Below, piece after piece: positions 18,186 through 24,576 of a stretch of DNA of 35,955 bases; position 1 is the stretch's first letter, and every line of letters begins with the position of its first letter. The notes beneath the pieces are model-generated. The model did not search any database. It worked only from the letters and a program-made list of their open reading frames with translations, and was not told the DNA's origin. The position numbers and the translations under genes were made by a program. The stretch is taken from positions 1 to 35,955 of the forward strand of contig JBBUEH010000023.1 of the NCBI GenBank assembly GCA_038078255.1, given 5' to 3'. This DNA is from Patescibacteria group bacterium (GTDB lineage: Bacteria; Patescibacteriota; Minisyncoccia; Phycocordibacterales; UBA9973).

Positions 18186-19943
18186 ATGAAAAAAGTAATA
18201 AAAAATTTAATCAGAGAAGCCTTAAAGAATTTAAACATAGAAGATGTGGATTTTGTTGTGGAGCATCCAGAAGATCTAGAGAATGGGGATTATTCTACGA
18301 ATGTGGCCATGGTGTGCGCGAAGAATATGGGAGCTAATCCAAAAGAATTAGCCGAAAAAATAGTTTCTGAATTAAGGTCGAACCTTAAGAATTCAAAAAG
18401 GTTCGACCTTGGGGAAATTTCAAAAATTGAAGTGGCTGGCGCTGGGTTTATTAATATCTATTTATCTCCCAAATTCTTTCGTGGAAGTATTGAGGAAATT
18501 CTAAATAATAAAAAATTTGCTCAAAATCATCTTTTCTCTGGCCAGAAAATAATGATTGAATACACCGATCCGAATCCTTTCAAGCCCTTTCATATTGGAC
18601 ATTTGATGACGAATGCGATAGGAGAGTCCGTGGCGAGAATTCTAGAATCTTCTGGCGCTACGGTTTTCCGAGCAAATTATCAGGGGGATGTGGGCTTGCA
18701 TGTGGCGAAAGCTATTTGGGGTTTACGAAAACGAGGATTACCAAATCCAGATTTTTCAACTGCTGCGAAAGCAAATTACATAGGAGAATGTTATTCCTTG
18801 GGTGCTGGAGAGTATGAACCTATCTACCTAGGTGACGCAGAAAAAGAATCTCCTGCAAAAAAAGAAATAGATGCAATAAATAAAAAAATCTACGATCATA
18901 GCGATAAAAAAATAAATGCAATCTATGATTGGGGATTTAAGGTAACGATGGAAGCTTTTGAAGATTTGTACAAAATACTTGGAACAAAATTTGATTTTTA
19001 TTTTCTAGAAAGTCAGATGGCGCCTATTGGAGAAGGTATTGTGAAAGACAATTTAGGAAAAGTATTTGAGGAAAGTGACGGCGCTATTGTTTTTAAGGCG
19101 GAGAAACACGACCCCAAACTTCATACTAGAGTTTTTATTACATCGCAAAATTTGCCGATGTATGAAACTAAAGAATTAGGTTTAACGATAGAAAAATTTA
19201 AAACAAAACCTGACCTTGATTTTTCTATTGTAGTGACAGCCAATGAACAGGCAGATTATATGAGAGTTGTGGCCAGAGCTCTTTCTTTGATTTATCCAAA
19301 ATATACAGATAAAATGAAACATATCACTCACGGCATGATGCGACTTTCTTCGGGGAAAATGTCTTCGAGAAAGGGTAATGTTGTGACAGGAGAATTGCTC
19401 ATTCGAGATACAATTGATCTTGTTTCTGAAAGGTTGAAAGATCATGATTGGGATGAAGAGCAGAAAAACAAAATTGCTGAGCAAGTTGGTGTAGCCGCAA
19501 TAAAATATTCAATATTAAAACAATCAATTAGTGGAGATATTATGTATGATTTTGAGAAATCGATTTCTTTTGAAGGTGATTCGGGGCCGTATCTGCAATA
19601 TTCCTATGCTCGAGCAAATTCTGTAATAGAAAAAGCGAAAAAAGAAAATATTTTACCAGATCCACATATTCAAGATACGCCTGTCGAAGTTTTCGAAATT
19701 GAAAAAATGTTGTATAGATTTCCGGAAGTTGTTTTGCGATCTGCCTCCGAATACGAACCACATTACATTGCAAATTATCTCATTGAAATTGCTCGGGCCT
19801 TTAACAGTTTTTATGGGAATACCCTCATCATAGATATAACAGACAAAACCTCGCCGTATAAAGTTGCTTTAACCTTCGCTTTTTCTTTTGTGATGAAAAA
19901 AGGCTTGCATTTATTAGGCATTGAAGCTCCGGAGAAGATGTGA
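18186..19943 (+). CDS. argS: Arginyl-tRNA synthetase
   Basis: GDYSTNVA, AGAGFIN, PNPFKPFHIGH, KMSSRKG, GDSGPYLQY, C-terminal GIEAPEKM. Confidence 0.97.
   Translation: MKKVIKNLIREALKNLNIEDVDFVVEHPEDLENGDYSTNVAMVCAKNMGANPKELAEKIVSELRSNLKNSKRFDLGEISKIEVAGAGFINIYLSPKFFRGSIEEILNNKKFAQNHLFSGQKIMIEYTDPNPFKPFHIGHLMTNAIGESVARILESSGATVFRANYQGDVGLHVAKAIWGLRKRGLPNPDFSTAAKANYIGECYSLGAGEYEPIYLGDAEKESPAKKEIDAINKKIYDHSDKKINAIYDWGFKVTMEAFEDLYKILGTKFDFYFLESQMAPIGEGIVKDNLGKVFEESDGAIVFKAEKHDPKLHTRVFITSQNLPMYETKELGLTIEKFKTKPDLDFSIVVTANEQADYMRVVARALSLIYPKYTDKMKHITHGMMRLSSGKMSSRKGNVVTGELLIRDTIDLVSERLKDHDWDEEQKNKIAEQVGVAAIKYSILKQSISGDIMYDFEKSISFEGDSGPYLQYSYARANSVIEKAKKENILPDPHIQDTPVEVFEIEKMLYRFPEVVLRSASEYEPHYIANYLIEIARAFNSFYGNTLIIDITDKTSPYKVALTFAFSFVMKKGLHLLGIEAPEKM
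18374..18410. repeat. Inverted doublet of AAGG-N5-CCTT units in frame in argS
   Basis: aaggtcgaacctt-N11-aaggttcgacctt, a perfect 13-bp inverted repeat; read as RSNLKNSKRFDL. Confidence 0.8.
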
Positions 19944-19967: not shown

Positions 19968-20273
19968 TCAATCCTCCCGGCAAGTTTTTTTGTCTTCTGT
20001 TATTTGACCAGCATTGTATGCTATTTTCGCCGCTTCTATTCGTGTTACAAATCTATTTTTATTAGTCATAAATCCCTTAATCATGAATCCTGTTTCTAAG
20101 TTTGCGTATAAAATAAAATGTTTAAGTTCGGGATCATTTTCAATTTGGTCATCTTCTATTTTTTGATGACTTTTTCCGGTTAGAATCGTTCCATTTGGAA
20201 ATTTCACTGCTACGGCAGTTATTCGTTCCGCAACTTCTGGGTTTTGTTGTAGTATTTTTGGTGATTGATCCAT
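19968..20273 (-). CDS. Small hypothetical protein, possibly frameshifted near its 3' end
   Basis: GFMTNKNRFVTRIEAAKIAYNAGQI motif. Start at ATG 20273 has TGtTAATAT 7 nt upstream. Confidence 0.65.
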   Translation of the reverse strand: MDQSPKILQQNPEVAERITAVAVKFPNGTILTGKSHQKIEDDQIENDPELKHFILYANLETGFMIKGFMTNKNRFVTRIEAAKIAYNAGQITEDKKTCRED

Positions 20274-20302
20274 AACTATAATATTAACACATTTTATTTT
20301 AA

Positions 20303-20330
20303 TTGGCATTTCTGTATTTTATGATATACT
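20303..20330 (+). promoter_or_regulatory. Sigma70-type promoter of the ileS leader
   Basis: TTGGCA-16 nt-TATACT with TG extension, about 9 nt before T-box Stem I. Confidence 0.6.
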
Positions 20331-20448
20331 TTGAATATAGGCATGGAAGGGGAAATCACCTCTGAGCCCTGGAAAGAAAGCCTTTGGCATTAGAATCCAG
20401 CGGGTAAGCCCGTTATAGCAGTAATGAGAAGCAACCAAGGTGGTACCA

Positions 20449-20473
20449 CGATTCGACTTCGCTCATCGCAGGC
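20449..20473. repeat. TTCGAC...TCA.C.CAGGC mini-hairpin in the T-box antiterminator loop
   Basis: cgat-TC-gacttcgc-TC-atcg-caggc; similar to 33528-33551 in tatD. Confidence 0.65.
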
Positions 20474-20479
20474 GAAAAG

Positions 20480-20534
20480 AAACTCGTCCTTGTATCGTAA
20501 CTCTTTGAGTTATTGTACGGGGACGAGTTTTTTT
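20480..20534 (+). terminator. Intrinsic terminator of the ileS T-box
   Basis: aaactcgtcc...ggacgagttt stem followed by a T run; mutually exclusive with the antiterminator. Confidence 0.85.
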
Positions 20535-20586
20535 ATTGGTGAATATAGTATTCTACTATTCTATAGAATTGTAGAATAACAAAATT

Positions 20587-23500
20587 ATGGAAGAGAATAA
20601 TAAAAAAAGTGAAGCATCTCTATGCGAGGAAAAAATTCTGGAATTTTGGCGTGAGAATAATATTTTTGAAAAGTCCGTAGAGCAGAGGAAGGGCAAGAAG
20701 GAATTTATTTTCTATGATGGTCCGGTTACAGCAAATTCTAAACCAGTTCTTCATACTATGGTGCCATTCTCTTTTAAAGATGTTATTCCTCGCTACAGAA
20801 CGATGCGTGGCTATCATGTGCGTAGAAAAGGGGGCTGGGATACGCACGGTCTGCCGGTAGAATTGCAGATAGAAAAAAAACTTGGATTTAAGTCAAAAAA
20901 CGATATAGAAAATTATGGCATAGCAGCTTTCAATAAATTATGCAAAGAAAGCGTATGGGAATTTATTGATTTATGGAAAAATTTTACCAAAAGAATGGGT
21001 TATTGGGCTGATCAAGAAAATGCTTATGTAACTTATCACAACAACTACATTGAGTCCGTCTGGAATGTAGTAAAAAAAATAAACGAGCAGAAATTACTTT
21101 ATAAAGATTACAAAGTTGTACCTTGGTGTCCGAGGTGTGGTACAGCACTCTCTTCGCACGAGCTTGCGCAAGGGTATGAAGATGTGAAGGATTTGTCGGT
21201 CTATGTGAAGTTTAAAATACGCTCTATCGGTGAAAGATTTTCTCAGGTCCTCGGTTCTCCGGGTCCCTCTCCCGGCCAGACCATTCGAAAACCTTCCACC
21301 GATTCCGCTTTTATTCTGGCTTGGACAACGACACCATGGACTCTTCCCGGAAATGTGGCACTTGCAGTGGGGAAAGATATTGATTATGTGAAGGTAAAAG
21401 TTGAAAACGAAATATTAATTTTAGCTAAAGCTCGAATTGCCATTCTCGGTGAAAATCCGGAGATAATTGGCGAAATAAAAGGCAAAGATTTAATTGGCCT
21501 AGAATACGAACCGCTTTTTCCATTTTTTGCCGATACTATTTCCGAAAACGAGAAACCCAAATTAAAAAATGCGTATAAAGTTTACCTTGCGGATTTTGTA
21601 AATACAGAAGACGGCACAGGTATCGTGCATACGGCTGTAATGTATGGACAGGATGATTTTGAATTGGGAACCAAGGCTGGACTGCCTAAACATCACTTAG
21701 TAAATCCCGAAGGAAAATTTATAAAAGGTACAGGATTTTTGGAAGGTAGAGTTGTAAAACCCGCCCGAACGACTGATGCCGTTCAGTCGGGCGGGGAAAA
21801 AGATGTCGCAATTGACATAATTATAGATTTAGCACATAGGGGACTTTTATTTAAAAAAGAAAAGTACGAACATAGTTACCCGCATTGCTGGAGGTGTCAT
21901 ACAGCACTCATCTACTATGCGCGGGATTCTTGGTATATCAAAATGTCTGACCCAAAAATTAAAAAAAATTTAATAGCTCAAAATGAAAAGATAAATTGGG
22001 AACCGAAATATATCCGTGAGGGGCGTTTTGGTGAATGGCTCAGAGAAATAAAAGATTGGGCGATTTCTCGGGAGCGCTACTGGGGGACACCCCTGCCTGT
22101 TTGGCTTGATAAAAATAATAATTTTCGGGTGCTGGGAAGTTTTGAGGAACTAAAGAAATTTGTCAAAAAATCTGATAATAAATATTTCGTGATGCGTCAC
22201 GGTGGTTCTGTTGCCAATCAAAAGAATGTCGGTAGCTTGAATCCCGGAGAAGAAAATGATGTTTTGACAAGCGAGGGTAGAGAGCAGGTCAAATTACAAG
22301 CGAAAAAGTTGCCAGAAAAGCCTGATCTGATTGTTTCTTCTAACTTTATTAGGACCCAACAAACAGCAGAAACGGTGGCCGAAATTTTTGGAATTTCCAA
22401 AGAGCAAATTATCCTAAACGAAGAATTAAGAGAAGCTGGAGCTGTAAAATCACCCAATGAAAACCAAGAGGATATTCGAAAGAGAGTGATTGGGGTCTTG
22501 CAGGATTTAGAAAAAAAATACTCCGGAAAAAATATTTTAATTATTTCTCACGAGTATCCACTGCGCGTGTTTCTGTCTGCCCACGAATCTTTAAGCGAGC
22601 AAGAAGAATTCCACAATTTCAACAATAAATATCTTGTTATGCAGAATGCCGAAGTATTCCAATGTGATTTTTTACCCTTACCAAGAAATAATAATGGTCA
22701 GATAGATTTACATCGTCCATTTATTGACGATCTAGAATTGGTTGGAGAAGATGGATCTACGCTTGTTCGAGTCAAAGAAGTGATGGATGTCTGGTTTGAT
22801 TCTGGAGCGATGCCTTTTGCGCAAGATCATTATCCTTTTGAGAACAAAAAGTGGGTGGAAGGAAAGGGTTACCCGGCGGACTATATTTGTGAAGCCATAG
22901 ATCAGACTCGAGGGTGGTTTTACACGCTTCATGCGATTGGAATTTTAATGGGTCGAGGTAAAGCATATAAAAATGTTATTTGCTTGGGACACTTACTCGA
23001 TGTCACTGGTAAAAAAATGTCTAAATCTATCGGCAATGTTGTCGACCCATGGCAAGTGATGGATAAATACGGCGTGGATACATTGCGCCTCTGGATGTAT
23101 TCTGTCAATCAGCCGGGTGAATCGAAAAACTTTGATGAGAAGACAGTGGCGTTATTGCACCAGCAGGTTTTCGGCTTACTTTACAATGTACTCGCTTTTT
23201 ATGAATTATATAGAGATAAAAAAAAAGAAACCAACGACCGTCCAAAATCAAAAAATATTCTTGACCAATGGATTTTAGCTAGATTAGATGAATTAATAAA
23301 AATTTCTACAGAGAATCTCGACAATTATAAACTTCTCGAGCCTACGAGAGCAATACGAGATTTTATAGGAGATCTTTCAACTTGGTATTTGCGTCGTTCC
23401 AGAGAACGAATTAAAGAAGGGGACAAAGATGCAAAACAAACTTTGTATTTTGTTTTAAAAACTCTAGCGAAAGTCATAGCGCCATTAGCGCCATTTACAG

Positions 23501-24576
23501 CAGAAGATATTTGGTTGAGGTTGAAAAATGAAAATGACCCAGAAAGCGTACATTTAACACAATGGCCTACTCAAAAATTTAAAATTTTCTTCTTCACTAG
23601 AGCCAAAGTTTTAGAGAAAATGAAAACAGTCAGAAGTATGGTTACTCTTGGTCTTGAGGCTCGCCAGAAGTCGGGGATAAAAGTTCGCCAGCCGTTAAGT
23701 CGACTAGAGATTATAGCTGAAGAATTATCAGATCAGTATATTGATATCATTAAAGATGAATTAAATATAAAGAATATTATTTATTTATTAAAAATAAAAA
23801 TAGGTATAACTAAAGTAACTCTAAACACAGATATTACAGAGGAATTAAAAGCCGAAGGGGAATACCGAGAATTTATTAGAGAACTCCAAAACAAGCGCAA
23901 GAAGCTGGGACTAAATCCAGGGGACAAGATGGTGATGAGCATAGAGGAGATTTATAAAAAATACAAAATCATGCCGAACCTACAGGAGCACATGCTTCGA
24001 GTGGCGGCAGTGGCATCTTTGATTTGTGATAATTTCAGTGAGCCACTTCCAAAAGAAGATATTATTACTGCTTGTTTACTTCATGATATGGGGAATATAA
24101 TTAAATTTAAGTTAGATTATTTTCCGGAAGTTTTACAACCACAGGGTTTAGAATATTGGCAGAATGTTAAAGATGAGTATGTAAAAAAGTATGAAAATGA
24201 CGAGCATGTAGCTACGAATAAAATAGCTCAAGAACTTCAAGTCTCTGATGAAATTTCAGAATTAATCAATGCTGTTAGTTTTCTGGGCGCACCCAATCTT
24301 GTTTTAGGAGAAAATTTTAGTAAAAAAATTATGGAATATTGCGATGATCGAGTGAGCCCGCTTGGGGTGGTGAGTCTAGAGGAGCGACTGATGGATTTAA
24401 GAAAACGCTATAGTCACAAGAGTCATTATACGCCCGAAAAACGAGATGCCTTCGATCAGGCTATGAGGCAAATAGAAAAACAAATTTTCGCAAAGTGCAA
24501 AATTAAACCGGAAGATATAAATAATGAGACAGTCAAAACAATAATTTCAAGCTTGCGGGATTTTGTGGTAAAATAG
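20587..24576 (+). CDS. ileS: Isoleucyl-tRNA synthetase (IleRS2-type) with inserted histidine-phosphatase domain and C-terminal HD domain
   Basis: FYDGP, GWDTHGLPVE, AWTTTPWTLPGN, GTGIVHTA, YPHCWRC, DWAISRERYWGTP, DVWFDSG, EAIDQTRGWFY, KMSKS. Ile T-box upstream. Confidence 0.95.
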   Translation: MEENNKKSEASLCEEKILEFWRENNIFEKSVEQRKGKKEFIFYDGPVTANSKPVLHTMVPFSFKDVIPRYRTMRGYHVRRKGGWDTHGLPVELQIEKKLGFKSKNDIENYGIAAFNKLCKESVWEFIDLWKNFTKRMGYWADQENAYVTYHNNYIESVWNVVKKINEQKLLYKDYKVVPWCPRCGTALSSHELAQGYEDVKDLSVYVKFKIRSIGERFSQVLGSPGPSPGQTIRKPSTDSAFILAWTTTPWTLPGNVALAVGKDIDYVKVKVENEILILAKARIAILGENPEIIGEIKGKDLIGLEYEPLFPFFADTISENEKPKLKNAYKVYLADFVNTEDGTGIVHTAVMYGQDDFELGTKAGLPKHHLVNPEGKFIKGTGFLEGRVVKPARTTDAVQSGGEKDVAIDIIIDLAHRGLLFKKEKYEHSYPHCWRCHTALIYYARDSWYIKMSDPKIKKNLIAQNEKINWEPKYIREGRFGEWLREIKDWAISRERYWGTPLPVWLDKNNNFRVLGSFEELKKFVKKSDNKYFVMRHGGSVANQKNVGSLNPGEENDVLTSEGREQVKLQAKKLPEKPDLIVSSNFIRTQQTAETVAEIFGISKEQIILNEELREAGAVKSPNENQEDIRKRVIGVLQDLEKKYSGKNILIISHEYPLRVFLSAHESLSEQEEFHNFNNKYLVMQNAEVFQCDFLPLPRNNNGQIDLHRPFIDDLELVGEDGSTLVRVKEVMDVWFDSGAMPFAQDHYPFENKKWVEGKGYPADYICEAIDQTRGWFYTLHAIGILMGRGKAYKNVICLGHLLDVTGKKMSKSIGNVVDPWQVMDKYGVDTLRLWMYSVNQPGESKNFDEKTVALLHQQVFGLLYNVLAFYELYRDKKKETNDRPKSKNILDQWILARLDELIKISTENLDNYKLLEPTRAIRDFIGDLSTWYLRRSRERIKEGDKDAKQTLYFVLKTLAKVIAPLAPFTAEDIWLRLKNENDPESVHLTQWPTQKFKIFFFTRAKVLEKMKTVRSMVTLGLEARQKSGIKVRQPLSRLEIIAEELSDQYIDIIKDELNIKNIIYLLKIKIGITKVTLNTDITEELKAEGEYREFIRELQNKRKKLGLNPGDKMVMSIEEIYKKYKIMPNLQEHMLRVAAVASLICDNFSEPLPKEDIITACLLHDMGNIIKFKLDYFPEVLQPQGLEYWQNVKDEYVKKYENDEHVATNKIAQELQVSDEISELINAVSFLGAPNLVLGENFSKKIMEYCDDRVSPLGVVSLEERLMDLRKRYSHKSHYTPEKRDAFDQAMRQIEKQIFAKCKIKPEDINNETVKTIISSLRDFVVK
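21226..21303. repeat. Family A' palindromic element (78 nt, 26 codons) in frame in ileS
   Basis: 17-bp arms (15/17 complementary) around tc-a-ggtc-ctcgg...cca-gacc-at-tc; read as IGERFSQVLGSPGPSPGQTIRKPSTD. Confidence 0.85.
21760..21795. repeat. CCCGCC...GGCGGG palindromic element (36 nt) in frame in ileS
   Basis: cccgcccga...tcgggcggg arms; read as PARTTDAVQSGG. Confidence 0.8.

Follow-up and report, generated by a model that had tools for sequence, protein, structure and literature searches.

Two described kinds of T-box riboswitch come closest to the element considered here. In the ultrashort (US) ileS T-boxes of Actinobacteria, such as those of Mycobacterium smegmatis and Mycobacterium tuberculosis, a short Stem I with a kink-turn (K-turn) base and no distal double-T-loop platform presents AUC and a following purine in its terminal loop, Stem II, together with Stem IIA/B, comes next, and a UGGN bulge is combined with a sequestrator of the Shine-Dalgarno (SD) sequence. 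In the canonical transcriptional T-boxes of Rfam family RF00230, such as Bacillus subtilis tyrS and glyQS, the specifier lies in an internal loop of a long Stem I that also carries an AG bay and a distal loop, the platform for the tRNA elbow, and Stem III is present. Most translational T-boxes have an intermediate or ultrashort Stem I, and their difference from transcriptional ones is explained kinetically: docking of the elbow by a long Stem I speeds tRNA capture before the polymerase reaches the terminator (PMC7583486). The accessible part of a preprint (10.1101/2023.02.28.530422) describes the US class as translational and all of its members as regulating ileS, and the same dichotomy of Stem I is found in the accessible parts of PMC12990946 and PMC11297988. 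The present analysis deals with a 35,955-nt stretch of DNA from a Patescibacteria group bacterium (assembly GCA_038078255.1, contig JBBUEH010000023.1, positions 1 to 35,955 of the forward strand; hereafter the window), in which the leader of the ileS gene, at 20340-20534, is very probably a tRNA-Ile-sensing T-box that would control ileS by transcription attenuation through a minimal decoding module. A preliminary description of this locus had stated that ultrashort-Stem-I ileS T-boxes act on translation, and 10.1101/2023.02.28.530422 and PMC12990946, as far as their accessible text goes, do say so.

The window leader resembles the US T-boxes in its short Stem I with AUC and purine in the terminal loop, its K-turn base, the missing distal platform, Stem II and IIA (the IIB pseudoknot being weak in this copy) and the UGGN bulge. 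It differs from them in having an intrinsic terminator instead of an SD sequestrator, in lacking Stem III, and in its host, a small-genome, Patescibacteria-like organism apparently without SD usage rather than an actinobacterium. The US class is said to be restricted to ileS, whereas the family of the window element, itself placed before ileS, also regulates aspS, valS and thrS. With canonical transcriptional T-boxes the leader shares the 7-nt antiterminator bulge, the competition between terminator and antiterminator, the U tract, the match between specifier and downstream synthetase, the K-turn, Stem II and the F-box, yet its specifier is apical and the AG bay, the distal loop and Stem III are all missing. 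The leader lies in a 277-nt spacer (20310-20586) that separates a minus-strand open reading frame (ORF; 19968-20309) from a 1329-codon plus-strand ORF starting at 20587, and its parts are the following.

20340-20534, plus strand: isoleucine T-box leader, all elements of which are seen in the sequence and in the covariance-model alignment.
20340-20368, plus strand: ultrashort Stem I, 29 nt, GGC/AUG bulge/GA/AGGGG[AAAUCA]CCUCU/GA/GCC.
20369-20400, plus strand: Stem II, with lower helix CUGGA/UCCAG and upper hairpin GCC-UUU-GGC.
20401-20419, plus strand: Stem IIA hairpin CGGG-UAAG-CCCG (20401-20412), then UUAUAGC.
20420-20435, plus strand: linker without Stem III, with a conserved AAUGAGAAG that is kept among ileS leaders.
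20436-20492, plus strand: antiterminator, with helix A1 CAAGG/CCUUG and helix A2 ACGA/UCGU.
20483-20534, plus strand: predicted intrinsic terminator, 5' arm 20483-20503, loop UUU, 3' arm 20507-20527, U7 at 20528-20534.
20587-24576, plus strand: ileS, 1329 amino acids, TIGR00392 at 854 bits (cut-off 621).

The base of Stem I has the make-up of a K-turn (C-stem GGC/GCC, bulge AUG, tandem GA/GA), above which a 5-bp helix, AGGGG/CCUCU, is capped by the 6-nt apical loop AAAUCA; the specifier AUC falls at 20355-20357, next to the conserved purine A20358. The internal loop of Stem II, AAGAAA/AUUAGAA, occupies the S-turn position, and an F-box-like CCGUUA is found at 20410-15 in the Stem IIA region. 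Within the 7-nt antiterminator bulge UGGUACC (20441-20447), UGGU would be complementary to the ACCA-3' end of tRNA. Helix A2 holds an insertion of 31 nt (20452-20482; 30 nt in the RF00230 alignment) with a small hairpin, UUCGC...GCGAA, which is absent from the preliminary description, and comparable insertions occur in 7 of the 14 genus ileS leaders; in translational T-boxes, insertions on helix A2 are frequent (PMC7583486). Stem Sa of staphylococcal glyS is likewise an extra hairpin in the terminator/antiterminator domain, according to PMC7583486 and the accessible part of PMC9177973, but differs in host, specificity and sequence, the present insertion being in the A2 loop. The preliminary description had placed AUC in the terminal loop of Stem I, a canonical UGGUACC in an antiterminator, and a strong terminator with a U tract ending ~52 nt before the ATG. 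All three stand: AUC is matched by the ileS gene and by the genome's own tRNA-Ile(GAU), the minimum free energy (MFE) fold contains the bulged antiterminator, and the terminator has a 21-bp stem and a U7 tract separated from the ileS ATG by exactly 52 nt (20535-20586).

That the loop triplet is the specifier is best supported by its changing gene by gene with the synthetase encoded downstream. With downstream genes assigned by BLAST to four references and checked with Pfam and NCBIfam, the apical-loop codon is AUC in 30/30 IleRS leaders, GAC (20) or AAC (14) in 34/34 AspRS leaders, a set that covers both the bacterial-type and the aspartate-tRNA(Asn) ligase types, and GUC in 8/8 ValRS leaders. 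The thrS leaders form a third subtype with a 7-bp hairpin, in which 4 pairs are compensatory; the apical loop reads C[U/C]ACCAA in 7/7, and ACC accompanies thrS in 7/7. As for the antiterminator bulge, UGGU is the form in 29/30 Ile leaders, in 8/8 Val leaders and in 9 of the 34 Asp/Asn leaders, the other 25 of which have UGGC; UGGA is carried by 7/7 Thr leaders. In the genome of the window, which is 521 kb long and 87% complete, a single ileS was found, and ARAGORN reports one tRNA-Ile(GAU), on contig C1 of that genome at 69777-69849, with acceptor stem GAGCGUG/CACGCUC, A73 and no encoded CCA; its anticodon would pair with AUC and A73 with the U of UGGU. The AAC (Asn) codon of 14 of the 34 aspS leaders, for example those at loci L007, L034, L041, L063 and L079, which stand before genes of the bacterial or the aspartate-tRNA(Asn) ligase type, suggests that charging of tRNA-Asn may control a non-discriminating AspRS.

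The proposed structure covaries. In an alignment of 21 ile and asp leaders (alignment A1), on which the structure was written by hand and the pairs were counted, the share of cells that pair is 91.8%, compared with 78.5 +/- 0.9 for shuffles (0/500 reached the observed value) and 28-52% with slid partners. Changes on both sides affect 17 of the 26 pairs, including all 5 pairs of upper Stem I, 2 of the 3 C-stem pairs and all 5 pairs of lower Stem II, and the antiterminator helices A1 and A2 covary as well. In 27/56 family leaders, 4 or more Watson-Crick pairs join the IIA loop to sequence lying 4-6 nt downstream, compared with 8.2 +/- 2.5 (maximum 17) in 1000 permutations of the partners. As to the window copy itself, the 261-nt leader folds more stably than every one of 200 shuffles (z = -4.3).

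Folded alone, 20436-20492 has the bulged antiterminator as its unconstrained MFE structure, at -13.0 kcal/mol, while the terminator alone reaches -26.7 kcal/mol and prevails in predicted folding when both sequences are present; 20483-20492 (10 nt) is common to the 3' strand of the antiterminator and the 5' arm of the terminator. These energies are near the means given for transcriptional T-boxes in the accessible part of the TBDB preprint (-7.4 and -19.5 kcal/mol) and count in favour of a switch. RNAalifold applied to 14 ileS leaders gives a terminator of 18 pairs, 8 of which show compensatory changes. In the first set of leaders (ile, asp and thr), hairpins with energies between -15 and -37 kcal/mol, each followed by a U run, are present in all 28, and every leader uses one and the same strand as antiterminator 3' arm and terminator 5' arm. 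When a strong terminator is defined as a hairpin of -12 kcal/mol or lower that starts within the antiterminator 3' arm and is followed by at least 4 U, it is present in 22/22 leaders of the relatives and 26/29 of the order (together 48/51 own-order leaders), in 7/8 of the class and in 12/28 from other classes of the phylum. A simple terminator scan returned an unrelated site at 20206-20219 and overlooked the real terminator, because its stem exceeds the limits of the scan.

Rfam at gathering thresholds gives no match in the whole window. At E-value thresholds, RF00230, the gathering score of which is 93 bits, aligns end to end with 20335-20494 at 44.7 bits (E = 9.6e-9 on a 451-nt region and 2.6e-9 in the whole-genome search), a match that is more than chance yet stays below the gathering threshold. 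The low score follows from the replacement of 74 Stem I consensus positions by 4 nt. The alignment is good at the base and K-turn of Stem I, across Stem II and the CCGUUA-bearing IIA hairpin, and at the core, where AAGGUGGUACCACG falls on the model with posterior '*'. The same model at E <= 0.01 matches 24 of the 61 genomes of relatives, and in 0/61 does a match exceed the gathering cut-off. Thirty fetched loci have the T-box core before genes of four kinds: ileS (13, and one more at a contig end), aspS-like genes (7), thrS (7) and uncharacterized genes (2).

A covariance model built from the relatives (R1; 134 positions, 26 pairs; matches counted at E <= 1e-3) recovers the same design in 86/151 genomes of the genus (66/112 of high quality), a tally that includes the unpublished-flagged genomes G500 and G569 and becomes 84/149 without them. 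It is also found in 43/151 genomes of the order, 11/151 of the class (7/145 outside the order) and 51/151 of the phylum (49/144 from other classes). The window leader scores 123 bits and the phylum leaders 50-130 bits. All fetched loci were re-aligned to R1 (alignment A2), which gave 94 matches, 89 of them unique; two partial ones, L009 and L018, were left out, leaving 87 leaders. From C-stem to C-stem, Stem I measures exactly 29 nt in 50/87, 27-32 nt in 74/87, 48-56 nt in 5/87 and other lengths in 8/87, values that, the alignment having been fitted to R1, are biased towards R1 and to that extent weaken the case made here. Seven leaders are without IIA/B (IIA segment of 0-2 nt), and in the shortest four the stretch from Stem I through the antiterminator is 109-117 nt long. 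DNA patterns written for ultrashort Ile T-boxes recovered, in trials, no more than 3-13 of the 31 ileS leaders already known and were dropped.

Two terms of the preliminary description, which had called for a survey of ileS leaders in the Candidate Phyla Radiation (CPR), need qualification. The hybrid design that it proposed is present, but it is not singular, being that of a large family by which aspS, valS and thrS are controlled as well. 'Actinobacterial-style' holds for the architecture and fails for sequence relatedness: the ileS leaders of Streptomyces and Kitasatospora, in which a Stem I of ~27 nt bears AUC in its loop, CCGCCGGAGG lies next to the start and a terminator is missing, reach only 23-33 bits with R1, against 50-130 bits in the phylum, so the likeness is only architectural. 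The genome was rightly called CPR-like, since all sampled phylum genomes measure 0.4-2.0 Mb and the closest named relatives of the window IleRS are Patescibacteria metagenome-assembled genomes (MAGs). In the profile search (IleRS alignment A4), the best match is to a 'Patescibacteria group bacterium' MAG with 54% identity, followed by Patescibacteria group MAGs, 'bacterium' MAGs, Candidatus Yanofskybacteria, Spechtbacterales and Paceibacteria MAGs; lower matches are to Clostridia, Actinomycetota and Chloroflexota.

A long Stem I transcribed from a promoter further upstream, which would have made the ultrashort stem a misreading, was looked for, and no room for it was found. The upstream side is occupied by the following site.

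20303-20330, plus strand: promoter-like site, -35 TTGGCA (20303-20308), 16-nt spacer, extended -10 TG-a-TATACT (20322-20330).

The site matches at 10/12 positions plus TG and predicts a start at ~20337-20339, at the foot of Stem I; its extended -10 sits 9 nt upstream of Stem I, and the divergent ORF begins at 20309. With a predicted promoter directly upstream and a divergent ORF behind it, there is no room for a long Stem I, and a hidden one is ruled out because the hairpin is closed by the K-turn, with 6 nt between the strands. Consistently, 42/87 related leaders have a TGnTAnnnT whose end lies 2-9 nt ahead of the model start, against 1.6% of controls (5000 random positions in the same loci).

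The proposed mechanism would run as follows. Transcription would start a few bases before 20340, and the 29-nt Stem I, flanked by Stem II and IIA(/B), would offer AUC to the GAU anticodon of tRNA-Ile; no contact with the tRNA elbow is expected, since Stem I has no distal platform. The ACCA-3' end of an uncharged tRNA would then pair with UGGU at 20441-20444 and hold the antiterminator, allowing readthrough into ileS, whereas with the tRNA charged or absent 20483-20492 would pair with 20518-20527, and the 21-bp terminator with its U7 would stop transcription. Binding of the tRNA, discrimination of its charging state, termination and readthrough in vivo, and a capture of tRNA that is fast without the elbow are what we infer from these features.

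A terminator would also be a sensible platform for this organism. Of 409 long ORFs in its genome, 8.3% have GGAG, GAGG or AGGA between -20 and -4, against 13.7% of internal controls. A TANNNT hexamer lies with its end exactly 6 nt ahead of the ATG in 98/409 ORFs versus 4/409 controls, and an extended -10 is found at this 6-nt position in 63 ORFs versus 2 controls. Many of its genes thus look leaderless, and SD pairing is not detectably used, which is what would make transcriptional control sensible here and leave an SD-sequestering T-box with nothing to act on. The suggestion of a transcriptional platform in an SD-poor genome is borne out by these figures, by the leaderless signature and by the covariation of the terminator (8/18 pairs). 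Elsewhere in the family, many of the leaders that lack a strong terminator stop 16-40 nt short of a start codon that has a GGAG-type motif before it, and others have no more than short hairpins with runs of U. Among leaders lacking a strong terminator, 9/19 have an SD-like motif ahead of an in-frame start, as against 9/59 of those with one, several of the latter nine being visibly false because they lie inside terminator stems. This contrast of platforms may be taken as a lead, not as a test, the genomes being related.

Several points tell against attenuation by tRNA-Ile. An elbow-less transcriptional T-box is predicted to capture tRNA too slowly (PMC7583486), and Stem III, which according to the accessible part of the same paper stacks on the antiterminator during sensing, is absent from the window leader (17 model positions deleted in the RF00230 alignment), although some relatives have it, for example L003 and L012. 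Stem II and IIA, listed together with IIB in the preliminary description, are clear, but the IIB pseudoknot is weak in the window copy, with only 3 contiguous Watson-Crick pairs, and the S-turn of Stem II has a U in place of the G found in most relatives (AGUAGAA). The RF00230 score remains under the gathering threshold (44.7 vs 93). The leader is missing from 65/151 genus genomes and from 6/6 Patescibacteria ileS loci fetched by name, and hence appears dispensable; the relatives in which it does occur are not independent, and their counts overstate the support. An ileS mRNA with a 250-nt leader and no SD would, moreover, be translated by a puzzling route, and a -10-like TAGAAT (20572-20577) ends 9 nt before the ileS ATG, from which ileS could be expressed independently of the T-box. 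Some of these points would fit a canonical T-box that has lost its distal Stem I by deletion, no longer senses tRNA and has left its terminator as a constitutive, leaky attenuator. Genome reduction in the lineage (a 521-kb genome), the missing Stem III, the weak IIB, the sub-threshold score and the absence of the leader from many relatives are all compatible with such decay. However, the 29-nt Stem I recurs phylum-wide at the frequencies given above and covaries, the loop triplet follows the synthetase in 72/72 Ile, Asp and Val cases, and the variable base of the bulge goes with the amino-acid class; such correspondences would not survive in a dead element, and decay is accordingly a highly improbable account.

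It is very unlikely, too, that the leader acts on translation, or at both levels, with structure near the ATG deciding as in actinobacterial ileS. This is what precedent would predict, all previously described ultrashort T-boxes being translational as far as the accessible sources go. In Streptomyces and Kitasatospora the antisequestrator 3' arm pairs with GGAGG near the start and no terminator exists, some leaders of other classes in the phylum end 16-40 nt before an SD-preceded start, and a further hairpin lies just before the window ATG. Yet inspection of the sequence before the ileS ATG reveals no SD-like motif, the genome is not enriched in such motifs, the switch region stops 52 nt short of the ATG, and the -26.7 kcal/mol hairpin with its U7 is a textbook terminator kept with compensatory changes. 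The further hairpin just before the ATG has another possible role.

20541-20580, plus strand: palindromic hairpin AUUCUAC-U-AUUC-UAUA-GAAU-U-GUAGAAU (predicted fold).

It bears -10-like hexamers of the TAGAAT and TATAGAAT types and could be a second promoter or an operator on which a protein regulator acts. A promoter between terminator and ATG might thus drive most ileS expression, with the T-box as a boost under starvation. Such a promoter is suggested by TAGAAT, by the recurrence of a similar palindrome in L006, L012 and L025 and by the habit of this genome of placing a -10 directly before start codons; against it, the hexamer ends 9 nt before the ATG (a spacing seen in 20/409 ORFs) and not at the typical 6 nt (98/409), and most related leaders are without the palindrome. 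We regard this arrangement as unlikely, and it would in any case be compatible with attenuation by the T-box rather than an alternative to it.

Beyond the window, the balance tips slightly towards the view that Patescibacteria harbour a large, undescribed family of minimal T-boxes with a ~29-nt Stem I and at least five specificities (Ile, Val, Asp, Asn and Thr), which would be terminator-based and co-transcriptional without elbow contact in SD-less lineages rich in leaderless genes; some members also dispense with IIA/B and Stem III, at ~109-117 nt. In the literature, which was covered in part, no paper was found that links T-box riboswitches to CPR or Patescibacteria, T-box together with Patescibacteria leading only to the transcription factor of that name. 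The abstract of Sherwood, Grundy and Henkin (2015) reportedly calls 'many', not all, of the variant actinobacterial leaders translational, and a short-stem leader with a terminator may already be listed in that work or its supplement, in which case only the phylum and the specificities would be new. The pairing of short stem and terminator is not described in the readable literature.

If this view is correct, the rule that a short Stem I means translational and a long one transcriptional control would be an artefact of sampling Firmicutes and Actinobacteria, and the choice of platform would follow the translation-initiation mode of the host. A conserved, covarying family that joins an ultrashort sensor to a terminator would be a natural counter-example to the kinetic argument and would make that argument testable: either tRNA is bound fast through other contacts, for which Stem II, the conserved linker and the A2 insertion are candidates, or the polymerase pauses. 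The family would extend apical-loop decoding to five codons and, at ~110 nt, provide structural studies and engineering with the smallest T-box scaffolds found in nature. It would also mean that annotation at Rfam thresholds misses the main amino-acid-sensing RNA of a major phylum (0/61 genomes of relatives). For CPR biology, the leaders may indicate which synthetases (Ile, Asp/Asn, Val, Thr) amino-acid-auxotrophic cells regulate by charging.

Matches of R1 in Anaerolinea and Clostridia (L105, L148, L146, L153 and L155) were considered as further leaders with short stem and terminator and rejected: Rfam finds long-Stem-I leaders there at 67-127 bits, the distal Stem I is visible in the alignments of L153, L105 and L155, and R1 had matched half a specifier loop. 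L009 and L018 have a T-box-like antiterminator (UGGC bulge) and a strong terminator behind a different, longer 5' domain, and are followed by genes for 236-263-aa proteins with no Pfam match. In five ileS leaders (L010, L015, L024, L029 and L061), the tandem GA of the K-turn is replaced by Watson-Crick pairs, and a GC-rich extra hairpin on the 3' strand creates a three-way junction with a span of 48-56 nt. Short-Stem-I matches also stand before non-synthetase genes (L066, L055, L038, L058, L064 and L088), the products being a class I/II aminotransferase, the leader of which has GAC in the loop and CGGC as the bulge, a NUDIX protein, and four proteins without Pfam match. At L049:1263-1501, an Asp-type short T-box, in which the strong-terminator rule detects no terminator, directly follows two tRNA-Met(CAU) genes, the aspS start being 248 nt further on.

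Between terminator and start codon, L008, L010 and L024 (ileS) and L028 (thrS) carry an insert of ~100 nt with conserved hairpins, such as GGUACGAAAUUUU...AAAAUUUCUGAAG; it matches no Rfam family at E <= 0.01 and may be a mobile or structured RNA element. In the window, argS (18186-19943, plus strand), just upstream on the strand of ileS, is without a T-box, and Pfam gives no match for the 113-aa minus-strand ORF (19968-20309) that separates argS from the leader. In the IleRS encoded downstream, a His_Phos_1 domain (Pfam) is inserted at ~534-617+, between the halves of the catalytic domain, position 506 of the TIGR00392 model being split between 22185 and 22693. At the C-terminus, DUF5915 is followed by an HD domain (~1134-1188). 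Its HIGH-motif region reads KPVLHT, and KPGIHH in close relatives.

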